Positions 1-39,744 are shown, counted from the stretch's first letter. The stretch is DNA of 62,599 bases from Candidatus Poribacteria bacterium (GCA_003635305.1 PYJE01000200.1:27171-89769), one strand, 5' to 3'. Program-made: numbers and translations. Notes: generated by a model not told the origin, from the letters alone.

Positions 1-994
1 CATCAACGCCGGCAATCGGCAGCGATGCCACATAGTCCGGCATCAGTTCAAAATCGTTGTAAACAAAAACGAGTAGGTTCACTAGCAATTCCGCCGTGAC
101 GAGGTTGTAACGAGAGAGCCCTGAGCCGTCCACAACCCGAAACCCCGAGCCCATCTCCTCCAAAAATTCGCCGATGACTTGCCTCCCTTTTTGCCAAGTC
201 CCCGGTTCACCTTTCACTTCCGCACCGAGGGTTTTGAAAATCAATTCGGCGATGACGTTATCACTCGGCTTGTTCATCAACCTGAGGATATCCATCAGCG
301 GCGGCGACAGATGCGTGGCAATAACGACAGCACCCGATGGCACAGTGCCGTGCGATACCTCTCCGTTGACAACGATGCCTTCTTGCTGCAGCCTCGTCTT
401 CAGCACAGTGCCGCAGGCGAGGGCTCTATCCTCAACGGTGCTGCCTCGGAGGGATAACGCGCTGAGTCGCAACGGTTTATCGTCCCACATCCAGCCGGGC
501 CCTTCCCGCACAGCGTCAAGATACGTTTCATCAACGACGATACCACCGCAGACCGATTGAACACCAGCATCGCGTAACGCGATAACCATTTTCTCCAAAT
601 CGCCTTCTTGGAGAACCGGGCTTGCCTTGCCTTTGAGGTAGACATTCCCTGCCACGCGCTCATTAACGATGGTATCGGCATAAAGCGTCGTTTCAAACCG
701 AAAGGCACTCCCCAATTTCGTCAAAGCCGCTGCCGCCGTGATGAGTTTCATCGTGGAAGCAGGATGGTGAAACTTGTGGGCGTTTTTGGTATAAAGCACT
801 TCTCCTGTCTTAACAGCGACAACCTTGATACCGAGATGCGCCGACGTGAGGAGTGCATCTTGTAAAACGCTGTCGATCTCTGCTTGTAGGTTTGCGTGCG
901 GATGGATTGTTACGTTCGGTGTTGTGGTGGATATCCCACAACCTACGAGTAGCAACGCGACACAGCAGAGAAACATCATCGTGAAGGTTTTCAT
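1..994 (-). CDS. dacB: D-alanyl-D-alanine carboxypeptidase/endopeptidase, PBP4-like (peptidase S13); C-terminus lies beyond the window edge
   Basis: Not in the ORF track because it runs off the window. My translation from ATG (994) gives MKTFTMMFLCCVALLLVGCGIS, a lipoprotein-type signal. It then shows HHPASTMKLITAAAAL (SxxK), NKPSDNVIAE (SxN) and VDGSGLSRYN, the PBP4 signature blocks. Confidence 0.8.
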   Translation of the reverse strand, partial: MKTFTMMFLCCVALLLVGCGISTTTPNVTIHPHANLQAEIDSVLQDALLTSAHLGIKVVAVKTGEVLYTKNAHKFHHPASTMKLITAAAALTKLGSAFRFETTLYADTIVNERVAGNVYLKGKASPVLQEGDLEKMVIALRDAGVQSVCGGIVVDETYLDAVREGPGWMWDDKPLRLSALSLRGSTVEDRALACGTVLKTRLQQEGIVVNGEVSHGTVPSGAVVIATHLSPPLMDILRLMNKPSDNVIAELIFKTLGAEVKGEPGTWQKGRQVIGEFLEEMGSGFRVVDGSGLSRYNLVTAELLVNLLVFVYNDFELMPDYVASLPIAGVD

Positions 995-1037
995 GGGGTT
1001 AATGATAACAGATTTTGTTGAATTAAGAAAGGGAAAT

Positions 1038-1075
1038 CTGAAGCAGGATTTCCAAGATTAGAGGATTTGCAGGAT
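1038..1075. repeat. Left copy of a 38-bp inverted repeat built from ~9-nt AGGATT/AAGATT iterations
   Basis: ctgaagcaggatttccaagattagaggatttgcaggat matches the reverse complement of 4787-4824 at 36 of 38 positions (hand alignment). Confidence 0.8.
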
Positions 1076-1112
1076 TAGGAGATCTCTCGGCGCAGTTAAG
1101 GTTGTCTCTCCG

Positions 1113-1597
1113 GTAGGAGAGCCCTCCCGCGTCTCGGCCCCCCGTATGCGCGGTTTCAAACCGCGCATACCAGAGGGTTACCATAGGGCGCGGTTTGAAA
1201 CCGCGCCTACCAGAGGGTGCCCGTAGGGCGAGGGCCTGTCCCTCGCCACGCATAGATCTCCTTTTTCATGCCACGCATAGATCTCCTTTTTCATGTGCAC
1301 CGGCCCCACTCTGTAAGTCAAGATCGCCTGATCTTGACCCCTCTCCATTTTTTATCTTTGACATTTTTTGCACAATTTGCTAACATAACGCCATGACTTA
1401 AATCACCGACAACGCTTATGGAAATCCTATCAGTGGTGCTCGTCTGAAGACCTATTTGCGATCAGGCGATCGCAAACTACAGAATGTCCGTTTTTAATGA
1501 CAACCGCGGCAATTAGAGACGGGCCCATTCTCTGTAGGTGGTGCTCGCCTGATCTTGACCTGTTTGCGATCGGGCGATCTCAAACTACAGAATAAGA
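1113..1597. repeat. Composite repeat module, copy 1 (several REP hairpins plus a promoter-like box), direct repeat of 4271-4721
   Basis: Long collinear identity with 4271-4721. It runs gtaggag..ccgcgc..ggcgcggtttgaaaccgcgcctaccagagggtgcccgtagggcgagggcctgtccctcgccacgcat..tttgacattttttgcacaatttgctaacataacgcc..gcgatcaggcgatcgcaaactacag. The two track ORFs 1195-1383 and 4353-4658 share the MKPRLPEGARRARACPSPRIDLLFH prefix. Confidence 0.85.
1358..1386 (+). promoter_or_regulatory. Sigma70-like promoter candidate (TTGACA-17 nt-TAACAT) facing the WD40 gene; an identical copy lies at 4491-4519
   Basis: Hexamers and 17-nt spacer read directly. It lies ~285 nt upstream of the 1671 start. Confidence 0.4.
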
Positions 1598-1670
1598 TCG
1601 CCTAATCGCCTCGCAACGCCTGATTGAATCACAATGCCACCCGCTTTTGTAGGCGAGCAAAGGAGCATTT

Positions 1671-4274
1671 TTGATGATGAAATATGAAAACACGCCGACG
1701 TTAGCAGCGGTGCTTTTAACCCTACTGCTAACCGCCACGCTAGCACTGACACCTGCTACCGCCCAGGATTACCAGCGGTGGGAATTACCCGAAGGTGCAA
1801 CCCTCCGCCTCGGCAAAGGCGGCATCAGCGGCGATATTACGTATTCTCCCGATGGTACCCTGCTCGCCGTTGCGACTTCCATCGGGATTTGGCTCTACGA
1901 TACAGCAACTTACAACGAAGTGGCACTGCTCACCAGACACACCGACCGTGTTTGGAGCGTTGCGTTCAGTCCGGATGGCACCACCCTTGCCTCGGGGAGT
2001 TCGGAAAACACCGTCAACACCGTCCGGTTGTGGGATATCGCCACCGGCAAAACCCGCCAAACCCTCCAAGGATACACCGGCAATGTCGAGAGCCTTGCGT
2101 TCAGTCCGGATGGACAAACACTCGCCAGTGGTGCTGGTTACGACTACCTCGTCCAATTGTGGAATGTCGCCGCCGGGGAACCCCGCCACTTCCTCCCCGG
2201 ACACACCGACTATGTTTCTAGCGTTGCGTTCAGCCCGGATGGACAAACGCTCGCCTCGGGGAGTCACGACCGCACCGTCCGGTTGTGGGATATCGCCACC
2301 GGCAAAACCCGCCAAATCCTCCGACACACCGGCAATGTCGAGAGCGTTGCGTTCAGTCCGGATGGACAAACACTCGCCAGTAGGAGTTGGAACGACCCCA
2401 TCGTCCGGTTGTGGGATATCGCCACCGGTGAAATCCGCCAAACCCTCCCCGGACACACCGACTATGTTTCTAGCGTTGCGTTCAGTCCGGATGGACAAAC
2501 ACTCGCCAGTGGCAGTTGGGATGAGACTATCCACCTGTGGGATACAAACACCGGCGACACGCTAACCACCCTCACCGGGCATACGGCCCCTGTCTATAGC
2601 GTCGTCTTCAGTCCGGATGGAAAAACACTCGCCAGTGGGAGTAGGGACGGTACCATCCGCCTGTGGGATGTCGCCACGGGCGACACACGCCACACCCGCA
2701 CCGGGCATACGAACTGGGTCGAGAGCGTTGCGTTCAGTCCGGATGGAAAAACACTCGCCAGTGGCAGTGGGGACGACACCGTCCGGCTGTGGAACGGCAC
2801 CACCGGTGAAATCCGCCACACTCTCACCGGACACACCAATTCGGTCACTAGCGTTGCGTTCAGTCCGGATGGAAAAACACTCGCCAGTGGCGGTGCTTAC
2901 GACCGCCTCGTCCGGCTGTGGGACGGCACCACCGGTGAACCTCGTCAAACCCTCCACGGACACACCGTCGGTGTTTGGAGCGTTGCGTTCAGTCCGGATG
3001 GACAAACACTCGCCAGTAGCAGTGAAGATGGCACCATCTGGCTGTGGAACATCACCACCGGCGCAATCCGCGACATCCTCCACGGACACACTTGGCACTG
3101 CGAGAGCGTTGCGTTCAGTCCGGATGGCACCACCCTTGCCTCGGGGAGTAGTTGGGACAAAACCGTCCGGTTGTGGGATATCGCCACCGGCGAGATACGC
3201 CGCACCCTCATCGGGCATGCCTACAGTGTCGTCTTCAGTCCCGATGGCAAAATACTCGCCATTGGGAGTTCGGACGGTACCATCCGCCTGTTGGATATGG
3301 CCTCGGGCGACACACGCTACACCCGCACCGGGCATACGGCCAGTGTCAATAGCGTCGTCTTCAGTCCGGATGGCACCACCCTCGCCAGTGGGAATGATGA
3401 CGCAACCATCCGCCTGTGGGATGTGGCTACCGGCAAGATGCTATACACCCTCACCGGGCATACGTCCGTTGTCTTAAGCGTCGTCTTCAGTCCGGATGGC
3501 ACCACCCTCGCCAGTGGGAGTGATGATGGCACGGTGCTCCTCTGGAACCTCGCGCCGCCTGCCGCCACACTCGAACCTGTCGCCAAAGATATCAACGGCG
3601 ATGGCGTTGTCAACATTCAGGACTTAACGCTCGTCGCCGCGCAGTTCGGGGAAACAGGCGAAGACATCCCTGCCGATGTCAACGGGGATGGCGTGGTTGA
3701 CATTCAGGATTTGGTGTTGGTGGCAGCGGCGTTTGGGGAGGCAGCCGCCGCGCCGATGTTCGCGCAGGCAGAGAACCTTGAGTTCGGAAGGGGCATCGAG
3801 ACCTGGAGGTCTCTCCTACAAGGAGAAAGCGTCGAGACCGGGGGCCTACAAGCGGCAGACGTGCAACAGTGGCTCACGCAGGCGCGGCAGATGCACCTCA
3901 CCACGCCCGCGTATCGGCGCGGCATTGCCGTGCTTGAGCAGTTCCTCGCCGCACTCAGTAGGAGGGACATCCCTGTCCCGAAAGAGACTGCATTGCTTGC
4001 CAACTACCCGAATCCGTTTAACCCGGAAACGTGGATACCGTACGAATTGGCGGCCGCCGCCGAGGTGACGCTGACTATCCACGCTGCAGATGGGAGACTC
4101 GTCCGCACTTTAGCATTAGGTCAACTACCCGCCGGCACCTACCAGAGCCGCTCTCGCGCCGCCTATTGGGATGGCCGGAATGCGCAGGGAGAACCGGTTG
4201 CAAGCGGTGTCTATTTCTATACGCTGCAAGCCGGAGATTTCTCGGCGACGCGGAAGATGGTGATTCGGAAGTAG
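1671..4274 (+). CDS. Secreted 14-blade WD40-repeat protein with two dockerin-like Ca-binding repeats and a T9SS/FlgD-Ig-like C-terminal domain
   Basis: An N-terminal signal (AAVLLTLLLTATLALTPATAQ) is followed by 14 (F/Y)SPDG..LAS..D.T(V/I)RLWD units. Then come DINGDGVVNIQDLTLVAAQFG and DVNGDGVVDIQDLVLVAAAFG. The C-terminus reads NYPNPFNPETWIPY...GVYFYTLQAGDFSATRKMVIRK. Confidence 0.9.
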   Translation: MMMKYENTPTLAAVLLTLLLTATLALTPATAQDYQRWELPEGATLRLGKGGISGDITYSPDGTLLAVATSIGIWLYDTATYNEVALLTRHTDRVWSVAFSPDGTTLASGSSENTVNTVRLWDIATGKTRQTLQGYTGNVESLAFSPDGQTLASGAGYDYLVQLWNVAAGEPRHFLPGHTDYVSSVAFSPDGQTLASGSHDRTVRLWDIATGKTRQILRHTGNVESVAFSPDGQTLASRSWNDPIVRLWDIATGEIRQTLPGHTDYVSSVAFSPDGQTLASGSWDETIHLWDTNTGDTLTTLTGHTAPVYSVVFSPDGKTLASGSRDGTIRLWDVATGDTRHTRTGHTNWVESVAFSPDGKTLASGSGDDTVRLWNGTTGEIRHTLTGHTNSVTSVAFSPDGKTLASGGAYDRLVRLWDGTTGEPRQTLHGHTVGVWSVAFSPDGQTLASSSEDGTIWLWNITTGAIRDILHGHTWHCESVAFSPDGTTLASGSSWDKTVRLWDIATGEIRRTLIGHAYSVVFSPDGKILAIGSSDGTIRLLDMASGDTRYTRTGHTASVNSVVFSPDGTTLASGNDDATIRLWDVATGKMLYTLTGHTSVVLSVVFSPDGTTLASGSDDGTVLLWNLAPPAATLEPVAKDINGDGVVNIQDLTLVAAQFGETGEDIPADVNGDGVVDIQDLVLVAAAFGEAAAAPMFAQAENLEFGRGIETWRSLLQGESVETGGLQAADVQQWLTQARQMHLTTPAYRRGIAVLEQFLAALSRRDIPVPKETALLANYPNPFNPETWIPYELAAAAEVTLTIHAADGRLVRTLALGQLPAGTYQSRSRAAYWDGRNAQGEPVASGVYFYTLQAGDFSATRKMVIRK

Positions 4275-4721
4275 GAGGGACCTCCTGGTCTCGATGCCCC
4301 GGTAGGCGCGGTTACAAACCGCGCCTACCAGAGGGTTACCATAGGGCGCGGTTTGAAACCGCGCCTACCAGAGGGTGCCCGTAGGGCGAGGGCCTGTCCC
4401 TCGCCACGCATCGATCTCCTTTTTCATGTGCACCGGCCCCACTCTGTAAGTCAAGATCGCCTGATCTTGACCCCTCTCCATTTTTTATCTTTGACATTTT
4501 TTGCACAATTTGCTAACATAACGCCATGGCTTAAATCACCGCCAACGCCTCTGGAAATCCTACTTGATCTGTTTGCGATCAGGCGATCGCAAACTACAGA
4601 GTGTCGATTTTTCATGTGCCCCGGCCCCACTCTGCAGGTCAAGATCGCCCGATCTTGACCTGTTTGCGAACAACTGGCACGTGTGCCAGATTTTCAGGCG
4701 AGCGCAAACTACAGAATAAGA
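4271..4721. repeat. Composite repeat module, copy 2 (direct repeat of 1113-1597)
   Basis: Same order of REP hairpins and the same TTGACA-17-TAACAT box (4491-4519). It begins at the TAG stop of the WD40 gene (the GTAGGAG of the REP). Confidence 0.85.
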
Positions 4722-4786
4722 GACAGGCCCCGCGCTACGTGATTCGGTATAGAAAGAAGAAACTTCACCTCAACAAGAGCCCTCGC

Positions 4787-4824
4787 ATCCTGAAAATCCT
4801 ATAATCTTGGAAATCCTGCTTCAG
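4787..4824. repeat. Right copy of the 38-bp inverted repeat
   Basis: The reverse complement ctgaagcaggatttccaagattataggattttcaggat matches 1038-1075 at 36/38. Its outer end contains the TGA stop of the 4821-5969 gene. Confidence 0.8.
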
Positions 4825-5969
4825 ACAGGAACCTCTGTCCAACCCACACTTCCCCGAATTGCATCAATCGCGATTTGATAACGCCACCCATCGTGAAGCG
4901 TCAAATACGGTTCGTGCGGACGATTTTCAATGTCGGCTAGGAAGTCGCGAACAAGCGCGGTCCACTTGTTTTGGATGTCATCGCCGATGCGCGGAAGGGC
5001 ATCTGAAAACGCCTGCGGAATAGGTAATTCCTCTACTGTATCACCGCGATATCGGGTAACCGGCGATAAGATGTGTCCGCCTCGTCCGACGAGCGTGCCT
5101 TCTGTCCCGTAGAAATACCAGCCGCCGCTGGGAGATTTTGTCGGCACACCTGGCTTCGGCCGCATCGTCACGAGGACAGGATTTTCCGTTCCTCCCAATT
5201 TGAAGAGTGCCGAATATCCCACCTCTGCGTCGCACTCGCGCCACTCCAATTTGGCAGCCTCCTCCATCGTAATCTCTTTGCTGCGCCAGACCCGGAAGTC
5301 GCGTATCTCTGGCACGACAGGTGCTTTTCTCGGCGCGAATCTCGCCTCGCCAACGGCGGAGACTACTTGCTGTCCCGTCATCTTTTCAAGCATGCCGAGT
5401 TGGTGCGTGAGCCCATTGTTAAGCGCGCCGCCGCCGTGCGCAAGGGAGTTCATCCAATTCCACGGCCTCACCCTGTTCGTCGGAGTTCCCGGAAGTCGAC
5501 GGGTGTATCCGATGTCAACCTCTTTGAGTTCGCCGATGCTCCGTTGCTGCGTAATCAGGTGTCGGACATACGCAACACTCGGTTCATACAGATGCGTCGC
5601 GGCGAAGGCGTGTTTGACCCCGGCCTCTTTGACGAGCGTGTAGAGTCTTCCCGCTTCCGCGGCGGTGAGTGCCAACGGCTTTTCGCAGATAATATGGCAG
5701 CCGAGTTGCGCCGCTAATTCGATCGGTTCGCTGCGCAAAATCGCAGGAGTCGTGATAGCGACGATGTCCGGGCGGTGTTTAAGCAGGCTCTCGCGCCAAT
5801 CAATGGAGGCTTCGGGGATACCTAACCGGTTGGCGTGTTTTTGCACGATATCAAGTTTGCGTGCACATAAGGCGAGGACTTTGACACCGTAATGTTGAAA
5901 AGCATTGGTGTGTCCTTCGGCAGACCAGCCTGCGCCGACGATGACTGCCGTTAAGTGGTTTGAGCGCAT
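4821..5969 (-). CDS. Gfo/Idh/MocA family oxidoreductase
   Basis: N-terminal Rossmann motif AVIVGAGWSAEGHTNAF, then the EKP motif (IICEKPLALT) typical of the family. 382 aa. Confidence 0.8.
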   Translation of the reverse strand: MRSNHLTAVIVGAGWSAEGHTNAFQHYGVKVLALCARKLDIVQKHANRLGIPEASIDWRESLLKHRPDIVAITTPAILRSEPIELAAQLGCHIICEKPLALTAAEAGRLYTLVKEAGVKHAFAATHLYEPSVAYVRHLITQQRSIGELKEVDIGYTRRLPGTPTNRVRPWNWMNSLAHGGGALNNGLTHQLGMLEKMTGQQVVSAVGEARFAPRKAPVVPEIRDFRVWRSKEITMEEAAKLEWRECDAEVGYSALFKLGGTENPVLVTMRPKPGVPTKSPSGGWYFYGTEGTLVGRGGHILSPVTRYRGDTVEELPIPQAFSDALPRIGDDIQNKWTALVRDFLADIENRPHEPYLTLHDGWRYQIAIDAIRGSVGWTEVPV

Positions 5970-9089: not shown

Positions 9090-9113
9090 TCCAATAATAC
9101 CAAATCAAGCTCA

Positions 9114-9173
9114 GTAGGAGAGCCCTCCCGCGTCTCGATGCGTTAGGTATCGGGACAGGGATGTCCCTCCTAC
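9114..9173. repeat. Two REP hairpins between the DUF1553 and DUF1501 genes
   Basis: gtaggagagccctcccgcgtctcgatgc and cgggacagggatgtccctcctac. The second supplies the TAG stop of the 9170-12730 gene. Confidence 0.8.
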
Positions 9174-12100
9174 TTGTTCACCACTTCGTCTAGATTCAGA
9201 ATCAGGTTCGCAATCAGTGTCCATGCGGCGACTTCAACTGCGTCTAAAGTCTCATCGGATGCCGATTCCCCGACTTGGACGAGTTCCGTTGCCGCCTCTG
9301 GATTAGCTGCAAGTTCTTCCGTTTGCGCTTCCAACGTCGCGAGGAGCAGTGCCGCTTCATCTGACTTTGGCAGCCTAGCTGTGGCTATCTCAAAGGCATA
9401 AGCGATGCGCGCCTGTGATGTCGTTCCGCCTTCGTTGAGGATGCGTTCGGCAAAGGCACGCGCAGCCTCAAAATACTGCGGGTCATTCATCAACATTAAC
9501 GCCTGCATCGGCGTATTAGTTCGTTCGCGTCTGACTGTGCAGGATTCGCGCGAAGGCGCGTCCAAGATGTTCATCTGTGGCGGCGGCGAGGTGCGCTTCC
9601 AGAACGTATAGAGACTCCGGCGATGCACTTTATCAGGGCCCGTATCTTGGACAAACTTGTCGGTATTAGAGCCCGTAAACCCAACGGCGGCCCAAAGCCC
9701 ATCGGGTTGTGGTGGTTTGACACTCGGCCCGCCGATATAGGTATACAACAAACCACTAACAGCGAGGGCGTTATCGCGCAAGGTCTCCGCATCAAGGCGG
9801 AACCGCGGGCCACGGGAAAGAAGGCGGTTATCCGCATCCAATTCCAATTTTCTCGCCGTTATCTGCGCGCTCTGCCGATAAGTCGCGGAAGTCAGCATCA
9901 ACTTCAGCATCTGCTGGACATCCCACCCGGAGGCGATGAATTCGGTGGCGAGCCAATCCAGTAGTTCCGGATGCACCGGCGGTATGCCTTGCGTGCCAAA
10001 GTCCTCGGCGGTTTTCACGATGCCCGTGCCGAACAGGTTCTGCCAGAACCGGTTAATCGTCACTCGCGCCGTGAGCGGATGCTCCGGTGAAAGCAGCCAT
10101 TTGGCGAGGGATAGACGATTCGGCGCAGCATCGGCCGCCATCGGCGGCAGTGCTGCAGGCGTTTGCGGATACACCTGTTCGCCGCGGCGTTCATACTCAC
10201 CACGCTCCAAAACATAAGCACCGCGCGGCTCTGTCCGCTCTTGCATGACAAGCGTCGTCGTCAGAGAAGCGTCCAGCGTATTCCGTTTTTGTCGCACCTC
10301 GGCCAACTCAGCAAAGAGTGCCTTCAAGTCGGCATCCTGCGTGACGTTCCCTCGGTAATAGTCGCGAATCTGTGCTTGCGGTGCTTCTTCACGTTCGCCG
10401 CGGGAAGTCGCCGCGATGTCCACAATGTCCGCCGGCACCAGCGGCACATCGGTTTCAATGCGGAAGTAGAAACCGGAAGGACCGGAATAGTTGACAACCT
10501 TGAGGAGTAAGGCGTTGTTACCGGGGTTAAGCTGCACCTGAAGTTGCTCCTGCTCTGCCGCTGCATCGCGCTGGACGTTTTTGGCGAAAATCTCCGTGTC
10601 GTTCATCCAGACTTTCAGCGCATCGCCGCTGCCGATATGCAAAAGTGCCTTCTGCCGCGTGGCAGAATTGATGTTCCGATGGAGATAGGTAGCACTGTTT
10701 TCGCCCACGATGTCGTTATGCACCTGCGCATCAATCCAATGCGTTTGCTGTGCCCACTTCAAGGTTTTGCCGCCGAAGGTGAACTCATCGCCTGTTTTGA
10801 CAGGTTTTGTCTCCGGTTCGTAAACTTGATAAAAGGCGAGATTGCCATGCGCAGCGGTGAAAGGGCCGACAGAATGCCAATTCCCTAATGTCATTTTGGA
10901 GCCTACTGGGTAAATCGTCGGCGCGTCTGTAACTGCAAGCCGGAACCGGCCGAACTGTTTGTGCCTCAAGTCATACTCATGCTTAAGGCGAATCTTCAAT
11001 GCGCCGCCTTCACTCCCGAAGGGTGTTGCGACGAGGAAGATTGCCTGCCGATTCTCCTGTCGTCTGTCCAGGGCCCATCCCGTTTCCGGTTTATCGTCAA
11101 TTGCATTTGCGACGACAAAGTCCCCGCCGGCCTGCTCGTGGTCTGCCCAGGAACGCACTATCGGAATCGGTGTCCACACTTCTGCGTCAGCCGCCGTGGC
11201 GATTTCCAATGAGAAATCGGTGAGGACGACGTTGCTATTATTGCTTCTGCCAACACCACCTTTCGGCAGAGATTTGTGCTTAATGCCTTCCAACCGAACG
11301 GCACTCCATTGGTTTCCGGCAGGCAGTTCCGCAACGATTTCATAAGTCTCCTGTTCCGGGTTCGTGCCGCTGGCGAGGATAGAATTATCCTCAAGCAGTT
11401 CCAACGTCGCGCCGCCTTTTGAGTGCATCTCGGTAGGTTTCAGGAGCGTCCAGCGCGGCATCCTGTTTTCCCAAGCGATTTGCGTTGCATCGACTCCGGG
11501 GATAGGTGCCTTCGTCTGGGCATCCAATTCACCGATTTGCGCGTCAAACGCGGCGAGTTCTGCTTCCTGTTCCGGTGTCGGCAATTTCACGACAGGCGGC
11601 GAATCCTTGCGGTTGCCATCCATCGCTTTTTCGGTGATGTTGTTGAAATACGCGTAGAGTTGATAAAACTCCTTCTGCGTAATCGCGTCATACTTGTGGT
11701 CATGGCATTGTGCGCATCCGACAGTTAACCCCATCCAGACGGTGCCAGTCGTATTCGCCCTGTCTACGGCGTATCGGACATAGTATTCCTCGTCAATGGA
11801 ACCCCCTTCGCTCGTCGTCACGTGGCATCGGTTGAAGCCGGTGGCGATGCGCTGTTCAAGCGTCGGTTCAGGCAGCAAATCCCCGGCGAGTTGCTCAATC
11901 GTAAACCGATCGAACGGCATATTGGCGTTGAAGGCATCGATTACCCAGTCTCGATAGGGCCACATTTCGCGGTAGTTATCCAGATGCAGTCCGTGCGTAT
12001 CGCCATAGCGCGCCGCATCGAGCCAGAACCGTGCGACATGTTCGCCGTATTCAGGCTTCGCCATGAAGGCATCGATGAGTTTCTCATAAGCGTCGGGAGA

Positions 12101-12827: not shown

Positions 12828-13595
12828 TTACTGTCCGTCGATTTTCTCAAAAACGATTTTCTCAAAAATGACAACGTGCTGCCACGGTAAATCGTCGTGT
12901 GTCTCCACCCAGACTAACGGATGCGGCGTTGCCTCCTTGATTACCTGCAGTTCACTCATCTTGTGCAGCGGCTTAATAGGCACGGTATCATCCTCGGCGC
13001 GGTATTCCACGAAAACGACGCGGCCTCCCGGTTTCAGCGCGCGACAGAGGTTTTCCATCATCTCATACGGATGCGAGAATTCATGATAGACATCTACCAT
13101 AATCGCCAAATCTACCGAATTCTCCGGTAGCCTCGGGTCTGTGATAGTGCCTAACACGCCTTTGACGTTCGTAATGCCAGCCGCTGTCATCTGTTCGGCG
13201 AGCAAATCCAGCATCTCCTGCTGAATATCAACCCCGTAGACGATACCTTCGTCCCCAATTTTCGGTGCGATGCGCCGGGCGATATACCCTGTGCCGACAC
13301 CGATATCGGCGACGACATCGCCCGGTTTAAGGTTCAGCAATTCAACGAGGCGGTTCGGCATCTCTTCGCGTTCGCGTTCCGGGCGTTCAAGCCATCCTGC
13401 GCCGAGGTGCCCCATCACTTGCGAGATTTCGCGTCCCATGTAGAATTTACCGATGCCGTCTCGGCTTGGGGCGCGCTGTTCATACCGCGTGCTTGCAGGA
13501 CGTTCAGAAGGCGCAGTCGCCGCAGAACTCAATAAAATAACCACGCCAGCAATGCCGGCGAGAAGATAAGGTTTCCTGAACATCGATTTCACCAC
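12828..13595 (-). CDS. Class I SAM-dependent methyltransferase with an N-terminal signal/anchor
   Basis: VVADIGVGTGYIARRIA (motif I) and AIMVDVYHEF. 255 aa. Overlaps the upstream gene by 7 nt, suggesting an operon. Confidence 0.75.
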   Translation of the reverse strand: MVKSMFRKPYLLAGIAGVVILLSSAATAPSERPASTRYEQRAPSRDGIGKFYMGREISQVMGHLGAGWLERPEREREEMPNRLVELLNLKPGDVVADIGVGTGYIARRIAPKIGDEGIVYGVDIQQEMLDLLAEQMTAAGITNVKGVLGTITDPRLPENSVDLAIMVDVYHEFSHPYEMMENLCRALKPGGRVVFVEYRAEDDTVPIKPLHKMSELQVIKEATPHPLVWVETHDDLPWQHVVIFEKIVFEKIDGQ

Positions 13596-18823: not shown

Positions 18824-20914
18824 ATGCCTACTCTCGATTTCAGAGGCAAACAATTTATCTATTCGCATCACCTTACCGTGCCTTTTCGCACGCTGGAGGT
18901 AGATGCGGCTAAGTCGTTCAAAAGTCCACCCTTGGATGAGCACGTGCGAGGGACAGGCCCTCGCGCTACGGGCGACACCGGAGGAAACCATCTTTCCTTG
19001 GATGAGCACGTGCGAGGGACAGGCCCTCGCGCTACGGACGACACCGGAGGAAACCCTCCTTCCTTGGATGAGGACGTGCGAGGGACAGGCCCTCGCGCTA
19101 CGGACGGCCCCGGCGGAAACCATCTTTCCTTGGATGAGCACGTGCGAGGGACAGGCCCTCGCGCTACGGACGGCCCCGTCGGAAACCACCCTTCCTTGGA
19201 TGAGAATCTCATCATTCATGGCGATAATTTGCACGCGCTGAAGGCACTCCTCCCGAAATATGCAGGGAAAATTAAGTGCGTTTACATCGATCCGCCCTAT
19301 AACACCGGCAACGAAGGCTGGGTTTACAATGATAATGTCAACAGCCCGATGATGCAAGGGTGGTTGTCGAAAAACTCGCCGATTGACGTTGAAGATATGG
19401 AACGGCACGACAAGTGGCTGTGCATGATGTGGCCGCGGTTGCACCTCTTACGGGAGCTGCTCGCCGAAGATGGCGTGATTTTTATCTCCATTGACGATAA
19501 CGAGGTGCATCTCCTCCGCGCTATCATGGATGAGATTTTCGACGCGCAACGGATTTTCCCCGATGGAAACTTCGTCGGACAATTTGTCTGGGCGGCCGGA
19601 CGGAAAAATAACGCGCGGCTCTTCTCCAACTCGCACGATTATATCTTGTGCTACCTCAAAAATCACGAGTTCCTGAATCAATCGGGAACTACGTGGCGCG
19701 TTCGGAAACAGGGACTGGACGACATCTATAAAAAACACGCCGCACTCCAACGGAAACACGGACAAGATTTTGCGACAATTGAGGGGGAATTGGCGGCATG
19801 GTTTAAAGGGCTCCCCGATGGCCATTCGGCGAAACGGCACAGCGACTACTGTTATGTGGATGGCCGAGGCCCTTACAGTTCCTCAAATACATCCGCCCCA
19901 GGTGGCAATGGGGACAGGTATCCGGTTATCCATCCGACAACGGATAAGCCGTGCGCCATTCCCGCAGGCGGTTGGCGTTATACCCGACAAGAAATGGAGG
20001 CACTTATTGCGGATAACCGCGTCCACTTTGGGACTGATGAAACCTCTGTCCCCAGACGCAAACTTTATCTGAAGGAGACTGAATACGAAGTTCCCTACAG
20101 CGTCTTCTACAAAGATGGCCAAGGGGCAACGAAGCGATTGCGTAGACTTCTTGGGCAGCCTTTCCCGTTTCCGAAAGACGAGGAAGTGCTCAAACCGCTT
20201 TTTGAGGCAGTAACAGGACCGGACGACATTATCCTTGATTCCTTTGCTGGTTCTGGCACCACGGCGCACGCTGTCCTCGCGCTCAACAGAGAAGATGGCG
20301 GCAACCGTAAGTTCATCCTTGTTGAATGTGAAGACTACGCCGACACCATCACTGCTGAACGCGTCCGGCGCGTGATGAACGGCGTGGATTCTGCCAGAGA
20401 TGCAACTCTTCGGCAAGGCTTGGGGGGTTCGTTTACCTATTGCACTCTCGGCGGGACTATTGACGAGGAAGGGATGCTTACCGGTGAAACTTTACCGACT
20501 TATGAGAATTTGGCGAGTTATATTGCGTATGTGGCGACTGGGAGTTCGGTTGCGATGGGGCGAGCGCAACCTACAGGCAGAGATGCGATGGGGCGAGCGC
20601 AACCTACAGACTGCAAACCGGAACGGCATCGAGACTGGGAGAGCTCGCCTACCGGGCAAGAGGACTACTTTTTCGGTGAGACTGAGACCCTTCGTTTCTA
20701 TCTCATCTATGAACCAGACCTTGCCTTTTTGGAGAGCGATGCGGCGGCGTTAGATGGAAATCGGGCGGCGCGGATTGCGGAACAGTGTAAGGCATCGGGG
20801 AAGAAGGCGTATGTCTGGGGTGCGCATAAGTTTATGAGTCAGAAGGAGTTGACTCCGATGGGGATTACGTTTTGTCAGTTGCCGTATAATATTTATCCTA
20901 TTATGGATGGGTAA
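18824..20914 (+). CDS. mod: Type III restriction-modification methyltransferase (Mod; beta-class N6A/N4C MTase) carrying in-frame repeat insertions
   Basis: NLIIHGDNLHALKALLPKYAGKIKCVYIDPPYNTGNEGW (motif IV DPPY) lies N-terminal to ILDSFAGSGTTAHAV (motif I FxGxG). mod-then-res gene order. Confidence 0.85.
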   Translation: MPTLDFRGKQFIYSHHLTVPFRTLEVDAAKSFKSPPLDEHVRGTGPRATGDTGGNHLSLDEHVRGTGPRATDDTGGNPPSLDEDVRGTGPRATDGPGGNHLSLDEHVRGTGPRATDGPVGNHPSLDENLIIHGDNLHALKALLPKYAGKIKCVYIDPPYNTGNEGWVYNDNVNSPMMQGWLSKNSPIDVEDMERHDKWLCMMWPRLHLLRELLAEDGVIFISIDDNEVHLLRAIMDEIFDAQRIFPDGNFVGQFVWAAGRKNNARLFSNSHDYILCYLKNHEFLNQSGTTWRVRKQGLDDIYKKHAALQRKHGQDFATIEGELAAWFKGLPDGHSAKRHSDYCYVDGRGPYSSSNTSAPGGNGDRYPVIHPTTDKPCAIPAGGWRYTRQEMEALIADNRVHFGTDETSVPRRKLYLKETEYEVPYSVFYKDGQGATKRLRRLLGQPFPFPKDEEVLKPLFEAVTGPDDIILDSFAGSGTTAHAVLALNREDGGNRKFILVECEDYADTITAERVRRVMNGVDSARDATLRQGLGGSFTYCTLGGTIDEEGMLTGETLPTYENLASYIAYVATGSSVAMGRAQPTGRDAMGRAQPTDCKPERHRDWESSPTGQEDYFFGETETLRFYLIYEPDLAFLESDAAALDGNRAARIAEQCKASGKKAYVWGAHKFMSQKELTPMGITFCQLPYNIYPIMDG
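18930..19193. repeat. 4 x 66-bp tandem repeat with a GCGAGGGACAGGCCCTCGC REP hairpin, in frame inside mod
   Basis: Units start at 18930, 18996, 19062 and 19128. Each encodes LDEHVRGTGPRAT(G/D)..GGN..S, just before the conserved NLIIHGDNL block. Confidence 0.9.
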
Positions 20915-25738: not shown

Positions 25739-26691
25739 AGCACCGGCTCCTCTTCACAATCCTGCGCCTTGACATAGTGTATCAACCCCGCCAACGTCTT
25801 GCCAGTATAGGTATTCTCAAGAGCGATGCCTTCTTGTTCCATCATCATTTCTACTGCGCGCATGCTTGCTTCTGTCGGAATAGCGTAACCTTTGCCGAAA
25901 TCGTGATGCCAGAGCTCAACCGGACGCGGGTTCATCAAGCCGCCATCTGTTGCGCCGACGAGACGCAAGGTCTGCCGCTCCATGCGGGCAACCGTCCACG
26001 CATTAGCGATTATCCAATCGGAGACGCGAATCCCAACGACTTGACTCCGCAACCCCGCAAGCCGCACGCCTGCTATCAAGCCTGCCATCGTGCCGCAAGT
26101 GCCGACAGGAACGAAGATAAATCGCGGTTCTGGCAAAATGTCCTCCTCAATCTGCGATTTGAGTTCCATAACCGCTGTCACGTATCCCACGGAGCCGAGG
26201 GGCGACGAACCTCCTGCGGCGATGAAATAGCGTTCCGGTCCGGTGCCCAACGCGTGCCTCGCTTTCTCATACGCATAACGCGCAAACAGAGTGTGCATAC
26301 GCCGCACCTCGTGAATCTCCGCCGCATTTTCACAAATCGTTTGGTAGTTCAACTCGGAATACTCGGTGCGCGGCTGTCGGAAAAGGAGACACGCCACGCG
26401 GAAGCCTGCCGCTTTTCCGTGAACCACCGTCGCGCGAACGTGGTTGGAACCGGTGGGCCCGATGGTGAAGAGCGTTTGGTAATTTTTCTCCCGCGCATCC
26501 GCAAAAAGATATTCCAATTTTCGCACTTTGTTGCCGCCGCCTAGCGGCCCGCTTAAATCATCGCGTTTTATCCAGAGTGAGTCAATGCCGATGGCGCGCC
26601 CTAAGCGCGGGAGACGATGCACCGGCGTTGGAAAGTTGCCGAGAGAGAGGCGTTTTTTTGTTGTTCGCATGGCGTTTTTTGTTGTTCGCAT
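25705..26691 (-). CDS. PLP-dependent D-cysteine desulfhydrase / ACC deaminase family protein
   Basis: FPTPVHRLPRLG...LWIKRDDLSGPLGGGNKVRKLEYL...GSNHVRAT. The N-terminal MRTTKNAMRTTKK is repeat-encoded, so the true start is uncertain. Confidence 0.8.
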   Translation of the reverse strand: MRTTKNAMRTTKKRLSLGNFPTPVHRLPRLGRAIGIDSLWIKRDDLSGPLGGGNKVRKLEYLFADAREKNYQTLFTIGPTGSNHVRATVVHGKAAGFRVACLLFRQPRTEYSELNYQTICENAAEIHEVRRMHTLFARYAYEKARHALGTGPERYFIAAGGSSPLGSVGYVTAVMELKSQIEEDILPEPRFIFVPVGTCGTMAGLIAGVRLAGLRSQVVGIRVSDWIIANAWTVARMERQTLRLVGATDGGLMNPRPVELWHHDFGKGYAIPTEASMRAVEMMMEQEGIALENTYTGKTLAGLIHYVKAQDCEEEPVLFWHTYGGGAT

Positions 26692-26880
26692 GGCGTTCGG
26701 ATAGGGTTTTGGATTCGATGATGTTTTCTACGTCATCCGTCATTGACGTTGTCAATGACTCCGTTCACTCATGCCGCTTTTTTGTTGTTCGCATGGCGTT
26801 CGGATAGGGTTTTGGGTTCGATGATGTTTTTGACGTAATCCGTCATTGACGTTGTCAATGACTACGTTCACTCATGTTGC
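26659..26880. repeat. 2 x 103-bp tandem leader module (minus orientation) plus a 21-bp partial unit, between the GMC stop and the dcyD-like start
   Basis: gttgttcgcatggcgttcggatagggttttgg.ttcgatgatgtttt..acgt.atccgtcattgacgttgtcaatgact.cgttcactcatg occurs at 26681 and 26784. It contains the dyad GTCATTGAC-aac-GTCAATGAC. Confidence 0.9.
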
Positions 26881-28434
26881 AATTGTCCTTACAATTTGAT
26901 GCGCGACGTAGTCTGCCAAAGCGGCGATAGTTAACGTCGGCGGCACGCCAATCGAAGCAGGAAACAGACTCGCATCGGCGACGAAGAGGTTCCGGACAGC
27001 GCGCGCTTCCCCGGAAAAAGTGACGACAGAAGTCGCCGCATCTTCGCCCATGCGGAGGGTGCCTTGCGGATGACTCGATGCCAGCATCACATCGTTCGGC
27101 ACAACCCCGCGCTGACAGATAATTTCCAAGTCTGCCTCCGTTTTGATGCGAACGTGTTGTGTGTAAGGCATCAAAATTTCTCTTGCACCCGCGGCGAATA
27201 GCAGGCGCGCGGCGTTGATTGCCCCTTCAATCAAAACCGCTTTATCCTCGCGGTTTAAGCGATACGCAATGCGCGGCGTGCCATCGCGATTGAGAGACAC
27301 GCGGCCTGATGTCTTGTCATGCAAGAGGACGAGGAGCGCGGCGATGTGCCGGTAGCGTTCCATCAATTCGCGATGGCTTTTCCCAAATCCCGGTAGACTC
27401 GCCGCGACTATCATCTGTGAGCCAAATGCCGGCATGAGAAGGTATCCGCTGTCGGTGTGAGGTGGGTTACAAACCCTGTCTGCGGTGGAGATATGCGCGC
27501 TTTGTAAGCGCGCATCTTCCACATCCAAAAACTCATCAATATAATAACTTTGCGGAATGCCGAGGTGTCCATCAATAATTTCATCAAAAATGCCGCCGAC
27601 AAACACCGCGGGATGCAGATGCAGATTACGTCCGACATGTCGGTTTAGTTCTGGCAGACGGCTTTTTAACCAGAGTTGCGGCGAATTAATCGCCCCGGCG
27701 GCTAAGACGACTGCCTTGCTGCGGATAGTTAGTTCGCCTGAGGGCAAACGCGCCGAAACGCCGACTGCTTTCCCATTTTCAACCAGCACTGCCTCGGCGA
27801 GGCAGTTGCTGTAAAGTCGCGCGCCGGCCGCAAGTGCCAACGGGATATAGGTGACAGCCATGCTTTGTTTGCCTGCAGCGCGCTTGGAAACCGCGCCTAC
27901 CGGTTCCGTGGGCGTAGAGTTTGGGCATCCAAAGAGACACCTCGCGCCGCACGCAGCGCACGCGCCGCGATTATGCCGTTGGACAGTCCCGCGCCACCCC
28001 ATCGCCTCGCAACCGCGGCGGATCACGGCATTAAGGCGGTTCACTTCAGACTCCTCAATTTGTTTAACGTTAAGCGTTTCTTCCACGCGCGCTAGAGCAG
28101 AAGAAAGTTCTGGGATACCCCATCTGTCCAATAACGGTTGCGGCGGCCGCACCGCGTAACAGAAATTATGCACCGTTGAACCGCCGACACCTCTGCCTTG
28201 CGAGATAAGAATGGCACCGTCGCGCGTCCGACGCAAGCCGCTATCCCAAAAAAGGCGGCGCAACATGTCGGGTTCATATTCGGTGAAGGTGCTCGGTTCG
28301 TGATGCTCGCCTGCCTCTAAAATGATGACAGAAATCCCAGCTTCGGCGAGCTCTTTGGCGACAACCGCGCCGCCCGCTCCGGAACCGATAACGCATACGT
28401 CGGTGGTTTCTCGCGCGTGCCTACTTTTGTTCAC
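26872..28434 (-). CDS. GMC-family FAD-dependent oxidoreductase
   Basis: DVCVIGSGAGGAVVAKELAEAGISVIILEAG FAD fold, and a C-terminal GMC block (HPQGTLRMG). The track ORF extends to 28578 but would overlap the TPR gene by 158 nt. The GTG at 28434 leaves a 14-nt overlap. Confidence 0.8.
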   Translation of the reverse strand: MNKSRHARETTDVCVIGSGAGGAVVAKELAEAGISVIILEAGEHHEPSTFTEYEPDMLRRLFWDSGLRRTRDGAILISQGRGVGGSTVHNFCYAVRPPQPLLDRWGIPELSSALARVEETLNVKQIEESEVNRLNAVIRRGCEAMGWRGTVQRHNRGACAACGARCLFGCPNSTPTEPVGAVSKRAAGKQSMAVTYIPLALAAGARLYSNCLAEAVLVENGKAVGVSARLPSGELTIRSKAVVLAAGAINSPQLWLKSRLPELNRHVGRNLHLHPAVFVGGIFDEIIDGHLGIPQSYYIDEFLDVEDARLQSAHISTADRVCNPPHTDSGYLLMPAFGSQMIVAASLPGFGKSHRELMERYRHIAALLVLLHDKTSGRVSLNRDGTPRIAYRLNREDKAVLIEGAINAARLLFAAGAREILMPYTQHVRIKTEADLEIICQRGVVPNDVMLASSHPQGTLRMGEDAATSVVTFSGEARAVRNLFVADASLFPASIGVPPTLTIAALADYVAHQIVRTIAT

Positions 28435-29584: not shown

Positions 29585-29930
29585 TTTGCATTAGACATTA
29601 TTCTGCATTTATGATAACATATTTCTGTGCGCGTGTCAACCCTTGGGTTACTTGTATTAAGACTATTCAGTTTTCCATTTGGCACTGGCATCTCCTGCGC
29701 GGTGCTGAGCGGAACTGTCACTTTCAACAGGTCAAGGTCTGGGGATTTTGACCGGCGAAGGGGCGCGGAAATGTGAAAATTGAATCGCTCTGCACTTGTA
29801 TTTTCAAGAAAGTTTGACACCGTATTGTTTTTTGTGGTATTATTGCGGTACCGTATCGTATATAATCGGATCTCGAATCAATTCGTTCCAGTTCAACCTA
29901 ACCGTATAAAACAAAGAGGATTTAGACCTA

Positions 29931-30194
29931 ATGAAGAAAACTCCTGTATACAACCTCAAGCCTAGGAAGGAGTATTTCCGCACACCTATCCTGGAGACTC
30001 TGAAGGAGCGTGGTGGCAGAGCTCGGAGACATGACGTTTTAAACGCTCCGTTGGTTCAGGCTGCCGCAGCAAAAATGAGGGAAGATTATCGGCAGAACAT
30101 TTGGAAAGAGTACTGCGACAATATGCGCGCTAAATTGGTGGGGGAAGGCTCCTTGCGCGATAAGTCCCCTCGTGGCGTGTGGGAACTTTCATAA
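29931..30194 (+). CDS. Small winged-helix protein resembling the Mrr N-terminal DNA-binding domain
   Basis: PILETLKERGGRARRHDVLN...NMRAKLVGEGSLRDKSPRGVWELS resembles the Mrr_N pattern, which ends ..SRGVWSLT. There is no nuclease domain. Confidence 0.4.
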   Translation: MKKTPVYNLKPRKEYFRTPILETLKERGGRARRHDVLNAPLVQAAAAKMREDYRQNIWKEYCDNMRAKLVGEGSLRDKSPRGVWELS

Positions 30195-35289: not shown

Positions 35290-35450
35290 ACAAAACGGAA
35301 CCTCTGTCAAATGGAGAGGGGTTCTAAAAAAGGACAGGCCTTACGCAAATGATGGAACTCGCCACCGGTAGACGCGGTTTCAAGTAGACGCGGTTTCAAA
35401 CCGCGCCTACAAGACTTGTGTTCTGCGTAAGCCTTAAAGGAGAAAAAACC

Positions 35451-35963
35451 ATGACACGCTTAATTTTTTGCCTTATATGCATCTTTTTGGGGTTAATCCT
35501 CAGTTTCTCGGTGCAGGCACAAGAGACAGAACTCGTCAAAGATTACGCAATCGGCTTTCACGGAGCTACGCCCGCGTTTGGCGGAATTAGTTTTCGCTAT
35601 TGTGGACTCGCACCCGTCTATCTACAGACTGTCGGGCGTTTTATCCTCTTGGACCAGGAGAGTGACCATATGTTGGGCGCGGGTGTCTCATACGCCATCT
35701 TTGAGAAGCAAACACGGTTGAACATCGCTAGACTTTACTTCGCCTTGCAAGGCGGTTGGCGATATAAGACCGAAGGCACTCTCCAGACAACGACACTCGG
35801 TGCCGGGCTGGCGTTTGGCGGCGAACTAGTGTTTTCACTCGGTGGCATCCCACTCGGTTTGAACTTGGAAATCGGGCAGGGGTTCGGCAGGGAAAACACA
35901 AGCACTGAATCGAATCCGATGGCCGGCGTTTACGTCGGCGCGGGGATACATGCCTATTTTTAG
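35451..35963 (+). CDS. Small outer-membrane beta-barrel-like protein (hypothetical)
   Basis: AAAGGAG RBS, signal MTRLIFCLICIFLGLILSFSVQAQ, alternating Gly/aromatic beta-strand pattern, and a terminal ..GIHAYF. Confidence 0.55.
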   Translation: MTRLIFCLICIFLGLILSFSVQAQETELVKDYAIGFHGATPAFGGISFRYCGLAPVYLQTVGRFILLDQESDHMLGAGVSYAIFEKQTRLNIARLYFALQGGWRYKTEGTLQTTTLGAGLAFGGELVFSLGGIPLGLNLEIGQGFGRENTSTESNPMAGVYVGAGIHAYF

Positions 35964-36096
35964 GGTGCTTTTGCTATGTAGGCGTGATGGCGCGGTTTCA
36001 AACCGCGTCTACTAGGCATCTTGTATCAATAGGCGCGATGGCGCGGTTTCAAACCGCGCCTACCGGTGGAGGGCGTTGCCGGTGTTGCGTGCTGCA

Positions 36097-36667
36097 GCAG
36101 GATTTTCAAGATTTGCAAGATTCACAGGATTTTTTTGTCGCCGAGCGTGCAGGATCAGGCGATCCTGCTCTATAAAGAGTGGCGGTGCATGGCAGTAGGA
36201 GAGACCTCCCGCGTCTCGATGCGCTTTCGGTGAGTCCGACGGTGGCGTGGGACAGGCCCTCGCCCTACGTTAGCAAGGGAGATGCTGCGGCCCCGTAGCG
36301 CGGGGGCCTGTCCCCCGCGCTCGCCGCGGCCGCGCGAGACAGGCCCCTGTAGTTCGCGATCGCCTGATCGCGAACGGGTCAGGATCGGGCGATCCTTACC
36401 TACAGAATGGGGCGGTGTGGCGGCAGTAGGAGAGACCTCCTGGTCTCGATGCTTTCTGTGATACCGACGGTGGCGAGGGACAGGCCCTCGCCCTACGGTA
36501 AGGAAGGAGCATCGCCCGACCTACCGTCGCGCGGTGTCTATAGACATTAAGGTCCTACGGACCTTTTCGCCATGCTACTGCCGAACGTCTATAGACATTA
36601 AGGTCCTTACGGACCTGAAGACGAATTTCCCTAATCCTGCTAATCTTGCAAATCTTGAAAATCTTGC
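36097..36667. repeat. REP cluster bounded by 35-bp inverted repeats of the AGGATT/AAGATT 9-mer family
   Basis: 36097-36131 gcaggattttcaagatttgcaagattcacaggatt matches the reverse complement of 36633-36667 at 32/35. At least 8 REP hairpins from 5 families lie between them. Confidence 0.8.
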
Positions 36668-36674
36668 TTTTAAT

Positions 36675-36703
36675 TTGACAAAAATAAAAAAATAATGTAT
36701 AAT
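36675..36703 (+). promoter_or_regulatory. Consensus sigma70 promoter TTGACA-17 nt-TATAAT
   Basis: Both hexamers are perfect and the spacer is AT-rich. It lies upstream of the TonB-dependent receptor gene. Confidence 0.55.
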
Positions 36704-36944
36704 TAAAATAGTGGTTTAAGTTTTCCACGATATTTACCGAAAAAAAGGAGATAACTCAATGACTTATCTATTTTTCTTCACAATAGCGGGCATTGCATCC
36801 CGCTTGAAAACGTCCGTCACCGGGCTGTTGCAGGGTTCCCTGCAAGAGTTTCGCGCGCTCGCGCGGTTAGGTGACGTATCCTACCCTGAAGACCCCCGTG
36901 CTTTACGGCCGTTAAGGACTGAAGATACCCCAGGAGAAGTCCTT

Positions 36945-39551: not shown

Positions 39552-39744
39552 GTAGAAATCGACAACGTCGATTTCGGGTTACGCAGAGAGATGTCAAACT
39601 GACGTTAAACCTACGCCGAACGCCTCGCGAACAACAAAAAAGATGCTGAAATGTAGAAAACGACAACGTCGTTTTCGGCTTTACGAGGAGATACATTCTC
39701 GAACCAAACAACGTCCGCCGAACGCCTCGCGAACAACAAAAAAG
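39552..39744 (+). repeat. 2 x 100-bp tandem leader module (hairpin + CCGAACGCCTCGCGAACAACAAAAAAG box)
   Basis: Copies start at 39552 and 39652. The hairpins are aaatcgac-aac-gtcgattt and gaaaacgac-aac-gtcgttttc. Same family as 26659-26880, 57291-57384 and 58248-58353. Confidence 0.85.

Follow-up and report, generated by a model that had tools for sequence, protein, structure and literature searches.

Nested repeats around a WD40/dockerin gene of Candidatus Poribacteria: probably two independent repeat layers meeting at a synteny junction

Correia elements of Neisseria and ERIC sequences of enterobacteria are palindromic intergenic elements that resemble miniature inverted-repeat transposable elements (MITEs), and in the Foldback elements of Drosophila short tandem repeats, variable in number, make up the inverted arms. 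Direct repeats delimit amplifiable units in the duplications of Salmonella and E. coli and in the amplifiable units of DNA of Streptomyces, which arise by unequal crossing-over mediated by repetitive extragenic palindromic (REP) sequences or by insertion sequences (IS). Here we analysed a locus of Candidatus Poribacteria bacterium in which a pair of inverted repeats (the arms) and, inside them, ~450-bp direct repeats surround a single gene for a WD40/dockerin protein with a type IX secretion system (T9SS) tail. The locus lies near the start of a stretch of 62,599 nucleotides (GCA_003635305.1 PYJE01000200.1:27171-89769), the whole of which we call the window. GTAG-tagged REPs, mosaic intergenic regions of interleaved repeat families and REP dimers within longer palindromes have been described previously (Di Nocera, De Gregorio & Rocco 2013, PMC3733652). 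Poribacteria are abundant in WD40 proteins with T9SS-type tails, and such 'eukaryote-like' proteins are thought to be important in sponge symbiosis (PMC3909097). We found no papers describing REPs or palindromic iteration elements in Poribacteria.

We consider it quite probable that this locus consists of two independent repeat layers at the junction of two synteny blocks and is not a discrete cassette. The genome of the window is a metagenome-assembled genome (MAG; G000, 4.35 Mb, 213 contigs, 87% complete), and its relatives are all titled Candidatus Poribacteria: G001 and G002 belong to the same genus, G009 (genus g4) and G003 to other genera, and G005 is a further relative. The features of the window on which the argument turns are as follows.

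2..994, minus strand: dacB-like D-Ala-D-Ala carboxypeptidase (Peptidase_S13; Pfam PF02113, E 4e-74)
1004..1091, plus strand: left arm (37/39 match to the right one), composed of a 5' extension (1004-1036), the 9-nt iteration block (1037-1075) and a short 3' tail
1113..1253, plus strand: left direct repeat, part 1, with GTAG-type REP hairpins in mosaic arrangement (per-base copy counts; the hairpins are inverted repeats I3-I7)
1246..1295, plus strand: 25-nt tandem duplication, in the left repeat copy only (sequence and a 25-column alignment gap)
1297..1445, plus strand: left direct repeat, part 2, a ~50-copy hairpin (1317-1339) and then the low-copy promoter core (copy counts 2-4)
1449..1597, plus strand: left direct repeat, part 3, REP hairpins with GCGATCGC, 50-160 copies each (copy counts)
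1671..4274, plus strand: WD40/dockerin/T9SS gene, 867 aa (open reading frame (ORF) and Pfam/TIGR profiles)
3790..3819, plus strand: GTAG REP hairpin inside the WD40 gene, in frame (inverted repeat I2; direct repeat family D14)
4271..4724, plus strand: right direct repeat, with REP mosaic, hairpin, promoter core copy and more REP hairpins (alignment to the left copy)
4787..4825, minus strand: right arm, 5' end over the oxidoreductase TGA (37/39 match to the left arm)
4821..5969, minus strand: GFO/IDH/MocA-family oxidoreductase (Pfam; synteny with G001, G002 and G009)
36098..36666, no strand: second bracket, formed by an arm on the plus strand (36098-36130), a 500-nt gene-less REP cluster and an arm on the minus strand (36634-36666; block scan)

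Each arm has a history of its own in the relatives. The oxidoreductase stop codon (4821-4823, minus strand) sits within the right arm, and in G001 and G002 the orthologous oxidoreductases (90-91% identical in amino acids) also carry an arm block on the stop codon, in which the CA[AG]GAT hexamers are kept and the 3-nt spacers vary. Among ~65 Poribacteria orthologs in all, this stop-codon arm occurs in G000, G001 and G002 only. Every genome of the genus (three in all) has it and about 60 others lack it, which places its single gain in the ancestor of the genus; there it already stood on the oxidoreductase stop codon. The 5' end of the left arm points to dacB, 42 nt from the ATG, and G001 has a shorter orthologous arm at the same spot upstream of dacB, with the same 5' extension (GAATTAGGAAAGGGAAATCTGAATCAGG), within the cimA|dacB intergenic region. 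A cimA-like gene stands upstream of dacB both in G001 and in G009; because it is common to G001 and another genus, the cimA|dacB adjacency is ancestral, and the left arm stood upstream of dacB already while dacB adjoined cimA. The cimA gene of G000 lies on contig C196, behind an arm of its own and a TTGACA-17-TAAAAT promoter.

The gene order around the arms agrees with these histories. The dacB-like gene, which extends past the window start, is the end of the left synteny block, and the right synteny block (oxidoreductase, pentapeptide/ion channel, DUF1501 and PSCyt genes) ends at the oxidoreductase. Orthologs of dacB are present in G001, G002, G009 and G005, at a distance of 0.3-1.5 Mb from the oxidoreductase (0.3-0.8 Mb in the sister genomes), and in none of these four relatives are the two genes adjacent. 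The downstream neighbour of the oxidoreductase is different in all three relatives examined (G001, G002 and G009). As the arms are orthologous at separate gene ends, the locus is best read as a derived junction of two synteny blocks. The repeat-filled interiors of intergenic regions coincide with synteny breakpoints.

Both arms belong to a family of dispersed, oriented blocks of tandem 9-nt iterations, CAGGATTTn/CAAGATTTn (GCAGGATTT, nCAAGATTn). G000 contains 210 such blocks under the strict pattern and 399 in the union of patterns, compared with 0-1 in the reversed-genome control. Block pairs spaced 30-60 nt apart were convergent in 37 cases and divergent in 0, and the characteristic form is an imperfect palindrome of ~100 nt made of a block, a 30-60-nt loop and an inverted block, of which 51 compact elements were counted. 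Three of these compact elements fold into long hairpins (z -3.9 to -5.1); the locus arms folded alone are unstructured. The three-unit pattern was counted 314 times in G000 and 211 times in G002, against 6 in their congener G001 and 0-19 in other genomes of the order, and an intergenic site on contig C208 is occupied in G000 and empty in five relatives. These uneven counts, together with the filled and empty site, indicate that the family is young and mobile.

The blocks are strongly oriented with respect to genes. Of 89 blocks that are alone in their intergenic region, 64 have the 5' end (GAAGCAGG...) toward the nearer gene (p = 4e-5). Where the outermost blocks of one intergenic region lie >150 nt apart, 20 pairs are convergent, 1 is divergent and 11 have the same orientation, and the interiors of these bracketed regions are 20-88% repeat-masked; further brackets of REP clusters are found at C69:12601-13290 and C196:29474-29910. 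An outward TTGAC[AT]-N16-18-TAnnnT promoter occurs within 32 nt of 33/391 blocks, with ~5 expected and 3 on the inward side, and several arms of the family overlap stop codons. This palindromic repeat family of 9-nt iterations, with its strong outward polarity, is previously undescribed. A role of the arms as terminators or operators was considered and rejected: over all blocks the 5' ends face starts and stops about equally (90 vs 81), as they do in the TCTGAAGC subfamily (37 vs 34), which leaves no simple function of either kind.

Compared with the Correia and ERIC elements, the 9-nt family is similar in forming imperfect palindromes of about 90-130 nt, in its hundreds of copies and lineage-specific burst, in having filled and empty orthologous sites, and in lying beside promoters and gene ends; it shares with Foldback elements arms made of tandem short iterations. 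It differs from all of these in having no defined target-site duplication (one 2-nt hint, at C208), no autonomous partner or transposase found, many solo arms, and a 39-nt solo subfamily conserved across genera. At C208:6215-6424 (L040 1017-1224), a block palindrome interrupts a GTAG REP in its 3' stem, and 2 nt (GC) may have been duplicated there. The composite of ~195 nt is wholly absent from the five relatives, and the intergenic region next to this site holds different repeats in each of three genomes.

A preliminary description of the window had suggested a non-autonomous mobile or recombination cassette, able to carry cargo, of which the arms might be the terminal inverted repeats and the WD40 gene the passenger. 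The geometry on which this proposal was built is real. The inverted repeats around the WD40 gene are slightly longer than first described, with 37/39 positions complementary between 1037-1075 and the reverse complement of 4787-4825, and they lie exactly around one gene and its repeats. The right arm does supply the oxidoreductase TGA, and arms of the same family at 36098-36130 (+) and 36634-36666 (-) do enclose the gene-less REP cluster. From 100 dinucleotide shuffles, no arm-like inverted match would be expected; such shuffles are the wrong null here, given an arm family of ~400 blocks, or one per 11 kb, with 14 adjacent convergent pairs around genes in G000.

As cassette ends, the arms of G000 would also fit in being nearly each other's closest relatives and in belonging to a mobile family that does form inward-facing pairs, and the locus resembles a composite transposon or a pair of cargo-carrying MITEs in having inverted terminal sequences around a passenger gene. 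The relatives speak against it. Both arm positions are occupied in sister genomes that have no WD40 gene there and in which dacB and the oxidoreductase are far apart; the arms are thus orthologously tied to their own flanking genes and predate their juxtaposition. The empty site that a cassette calls for, dacB next to the oxidoreductase, was not found in G001, G002, G009 or G005. No target-site duplication exists outside the arms, as had been noted before, and the outer flanks ...GAAAGGGAAA| and |CAGGAACCTC have nothing in common. The unit has no second copy, and of the three copies of its promoter core in G000 the third has no arm detected nearby.

The genome-wide pairing of arms divided the earlier expectation of inward-facing pairs. 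It stood for the ~100-nt palindromes and the brackets of gene-less REP clusters, and it fell for pairs that enclose genes: adjacent block pairs enclosing at least one gene were convergent in 14 cases, divergent in 27 and of the same orientation in 43, and those enclosing exactly one gene were so in 3, 8 and 15 cases, so that convergent pairs are under-represented. The genes inside the other convergent pairs are ordinary ones, encoding a nucleoside hydrolase, tetratricopeptide repeat (TPR) proteins, a pseudopilin together with a sigma-54 regulator, a HAD hydrolase, a WD40 protein and unknowns. No transposase or recombinase was present among the ten proteins scanned from these pairs; other transposase families were not searched genome-wide. 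With the orthologous arms largely refuting it already, we regard a cassette as highly improbable.

The likeness of the two arms may have a simpler source. The two locus arms, which differ at 2/39 positions, and one copy on contig C69 form a tight trio in G000 with 0-3/39 differences, and the trio comes close to TCTGAAnCAGGATTTnCAnGATTAnAGGATTTnCAGGAT, the consensus of a discrete 39-nt subfamily that has 11 copies in G002 and 30 in G003 at no more than 3 mismatches. Closeness to this shared consensus could explain why the locus arms are so alike, and gene conversion after the arms met possibly contributed. The C69 copy (C69:12568-12655) is an 88-nt match to the left arm, 94% identical. The duplicated region at C69:12568-12715 comprises the left arm with its 5' extension of 33 nt and the REP that follows, stands behind an unrelated gene, and remains similar past a 14-nt indel; it starts another bracketed REP cluster, which is closed by an inverted arm at about 13250-13290. 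The 30 copies in G003 (e.g. C33:15384-15545 and C57:29955) are a solo form, TCTGAACCAGGATTTTCA[AG]GATTA[TC]AGGATTTTCAGGAT, in AT-rich surroundings, and conservation of the 39-nt subfamily across genera is unusually strong for a dispersed repeat.

The arms could alternatively be the two halves of one ancestral ~100-nt palindrome that was split by nested insertion of REPs and then of the WD40 gene and its spacers. Several observations suit this idea: arms bracket REP clusters by 20:1, nesting is seen directly at C208, where a block palindrome sits in a GTAG REP stem, and the dacB-WD40 and WD40-oxidoreductase intervals both have no arm on the WD40 side. REP dimers inside long palindromes are also described in Anabaena variabilis (PMC3733652). 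The partners of the arms in relatives argue the other way. The dacB arm of G001 pairs with an arm next to cimA, in an arrangement common to another genus, and the gene that follows the oxidoreductase arm downstream differs among the three relatives examined; the different partners imply that the two arms derive from different ancestral brackets. We therefore find a split palindrome very unlikely.

In the two-layer reading, the arms form the first layer, as solo representatives of a MITE-like family that is lineage-specific and forms hairpins. Arms of this family stand at either outer end of an intergenic repeat cluster, the 5' end turned to the gene boundary (a stop codon or promoter), and the interior between them fills with GTAG REPs and is the place where rearrangements happen. 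A later rearrangement through these repeat-filled interiors may have joined the dacB and oxidoreductase ends in G000, and the arms face each other at the WD40 locus because of the general outward polarity of the family.

A more ambitious view is that the arms are a foldback-type element in which the CA[AG]GAT hexamers at 9-nt spacing form a putative binding array for a dedicated protein, and that the arms delimit repeat compartments. Inside such compartments, GTAG REPs would accumulate, synteny would break and paralogs like the WD40 gene would come and go, and the promoters and stop codons just outside the arms would stay protected. The 20:1 polarity, the conserved hexamers with variable spacers and the cross-genus 39-nt subfamily are compatible with this view and do not require it, and we consider it unlikely.

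The second layer of the two-layer reading consists of the direct repeats, for which the earlier description again proved accurate. They are collinear and lie inside the arms: a global alignment of 1113-1600 with 4271-4724 gave 395/427 identical positions (92.5% on ungapped columns) with 88 gap columns, and identity reached 96% between 1139-1270 and 4297-4428 and 97% between 1270-1429 and 4403-4562, with an identical run of 116 nt at 1280-1395 and 4413-4528. Each repeat is made of REP hairpins and contains the same TTGACA-17-TAACAT box, at 1358-1386 and 4491-4519, with a TG before the -10. The left box has a promoter-scan score of 10/12 and lies about 285-287 nt upstream of the WD40 start, and the right one is an orphan, with no gene after it on the same strand. 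The right repeat begins at 4271, over the WD40 TAG (4272-4274), as had been stated. A third, diverged copy of the promoter core is at C4:22433, 293 nt from the start of an unrelated gene.

REP families, with copy numbers from 50 to about 2000, account for the repeats outside the low-copy parts at about 1260-1300 and 1345-1445 (= 4480-4562). Those in part 1 of the left repeat have about 130, 1400-1650 and 1200 genome copies, and the GTAG-headed imperfect palindromes GTAGGCGCGGTTTGAAACCGCGCCTAC and GTAGGGCGAGGGCCTGTCCCTCGCC have 1200-2000. A similar REP mosaic follows the stop codons of other WD40 paralogs (C200:18053-17903 and C24:15935-16042). Genome-wide, 14-mers present at least 8 times make up 4.4% of the genome and 21% of intergenic DNA. 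As in the GTAG REPs and BIME-like clusters of the earlier work (BIME, bacterial interspersed mosaic element; PMC3733652), the repeats of this locus are mostly GTAG...CTAC hairpins, 25-40 nt long and present in hundreds to about 2000 copies, which cluster in intergenic regions, overlap stop codons and sometimes lie in frame inside genes. What sets the locus apart from those REPs is the bracketing arms of 9-nt iterations, which are absent from that paper.

A RAYT (PF01797) match was not found in G000, which is 87% complete, and G001 and G002 gave only weak matches to PF01797 (Y1 transposase). Rfam returned only sub-threshold miRNA-model look-alikes on REP hairpins for positions 900-5000. In-frame GTAG REPs occur within the WD40 gene at 3790-3819 and 3957-3981, in the linker between dockerin and T9SS tail, and between the first of them and the REP at 4271-4300, just past the WD40 stop, complementarity is 93%.

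The gene between the direct repeats was correctly described as the only one there: 1671-4274 is the sole long ORF and encodes a secreted protein of 867 aa with 13 WD40 repeats (Pfam), a type I dockerin (Dockerin_1), FlgD_ig and a T9SS sorting tail (TIGR04183, 32 bits vs a cut-off of 23). It has 66-92 paralogous matches per genome and no positional ortholog, and the closest relatives of the protein form an 842-897-aa subfamily in G001 with 67-76% identity. A foreign origin of the gene was rejected, as its GC content of 0.59-0.62 is only modestly above that of the genome (0.54) and its close paralogs are all within the genus.

In G001, members of this subfamily stand in arrays. At one locus (L034), the spacer upstream of a subfamily gene recurs downstream of that gene as a 467-nt copy (88.7%), after which the next paralog starts. 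At another (L033), a 3.1-kb unit is tandemly duplicated, with an additional spacer copy at the array end. By analogy, each ~450-bp repeat of the window would be a copy of the kind of spacer that stands between tandem WD40/dockerin paralogs in the genus; it begins with a REP mosaic, and a strong sigma-70-type promoter and further REPs follow. The spacer-gene-spacer order would then be the one-gene state of a (spacer-gene)n-spacer array, which would leave the right spacer's promoter geneless, and unequal homologous recombination between spacers could delete or amplify the WD40 gene.

Recombination of this kind, with gain or loss of the WD40 gene, is the likely meaning of the direct repeats by comparison with those arrays. 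The flanking repeats are a real segmental duplication, and since the tandem WD40 arrays of the sister genome have repeated spacers, it is plausible that they could mediate loss or amplification of the gene. The parallel with amplifiable units lies in one gene between ~450-bp direct repeats that are 92-97% identical and in the two-gene arrays of the same paralog subfamily in G001, with n+1 repeated spacers; the difference is that the spacers are non-homologous between genomes except for REPs. Through the spacer repeats, the expanded WD40/dockerin surface-protein family could change in copy number by simple recombination.

We next consider how far the order of these elements depends on the assembly. 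Exact-protein look-ups returned only two contigs, both of the JGI metagenome 3300006527, and no other context was seen. The first corresponds to window positions 1297-4511 and the second to 4430 to about 13900, both at 100% identity. They confirm both repeat copies together with their unique flanks. Both of these primary-assembly contigs end inside the stretch common to the two repeat copies. Scanning of metagenomes with an IUPAC pattern over the identical core and both flank variants yielded no contig, nor did a scan for the promoter core alone; the window's own genome is possibly not covered by these scans.

The spacer-gene-spacer arrangement might in part be an artefact, with a wrong join across the 116-nt identical stretch. 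Both JGI contigs do break at the identical core (1297-4511; start 4430), and the MAG is in 213 contigs and 87% complete. Set against this, the repeat copies differ at flank-specific positions, and each is continuous with unique sequence on one side, from the WD40 3' end up to 4511 and from the oxidoreductase back to 4430. No third near-identical copy in the assembly offers an alternative path, and the path of the window is the simplest one through the assembly graph. We accordingly give a wrong join little credence.

Inverted repeats around a surface-protein gene also bring to mind an invertible, phase-variable element, in which a recombinase would flip the 3.7-kb segment with the WD40 gene between the arms. 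The predicted promoter lies within the segment, so that inversion would not switch the WD40 gene on or off. Moreover, the four flanking proteins scanned are not recombinases, about 400 arm copies show no such arrangement, and the two independent contigs match the single orientation of the window. An inverton is scarcely credible here.

Several points weigh against the reading of two independent layers at a synteny junction. The right arm is more similar to the left arm than to its own orthologs, and the next-nearest G000 copies to the trio of arms differ from it by 4-5 positions. The genome-wide arm statistics use crude ORF calls for genes. In the second layer, the G001 spacers have only REPs in common with the window repeats, not the promoter core, and the array-spacer model is an analogy between architectures and involves no homology. 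For the order across the 116-nt identical run, the MAG assembly is the only source. More generally, nested repeat geometry can arise in REP-saturated genomes from the general layout of dispersed repeats, and nested repeats around a gene should not be read as a mobile cassette without comparative evidence.

Other observations concern the second bracket and the modules that adjoin arms elsewhere. The interval 35964-36097, downstream of a 181-aa ORF (35418-35963), is a further synteny breakpoint relative to G001 and G002 (L038, L039): the equivalent position in G001 has no repeats and a different next gene, and that in G002 has a REP cluster and a Uma2-like gene. For the ancestral state of the bracket at 36098-36666 the sister genomes are uninformative, the site being a breakpoint in both. 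A TTGACA-17-TATAAT promoter follows this bracket immediately and belongs to a five-copy module that abuts an arm, at window positions 36667-36900 and at C187:13785, C2:28298, C32:3191 and C9:8423. The module consists of a perfect TTGACA-17-TATAAT promoter and then a conserved leader ORF (MTYLFFFTIAGIASRLK...), and the window copy heads an 871-aa CarboxypepD_reg/TonB-dependent receptor gene.

A three-copy sequence of ~300 nt (CCTGTTGGATAGGCGTTCCACCTGCCGACATTCC...) begins directly after strong arm-adjacent promoters at C134:~29700-30000, C15:~9090-9387 and C86:~18960-19263 (L065-L067) and looks like a structured RNA or the end of an element; Rfam gave no match at the gathering threshold for three multi-copy promoter-proximal sequences. 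A modular repeat of ~100 nt (GTAGAAATCGACAACGTCGATTTCGG...CGAACAACAAAAAAG) forms a separate family that is often fused to iteration blocks, and it occurs in the window at 39552-39744, 26681-26884, 57291 and 58248 and in many block flanks genome-wide.

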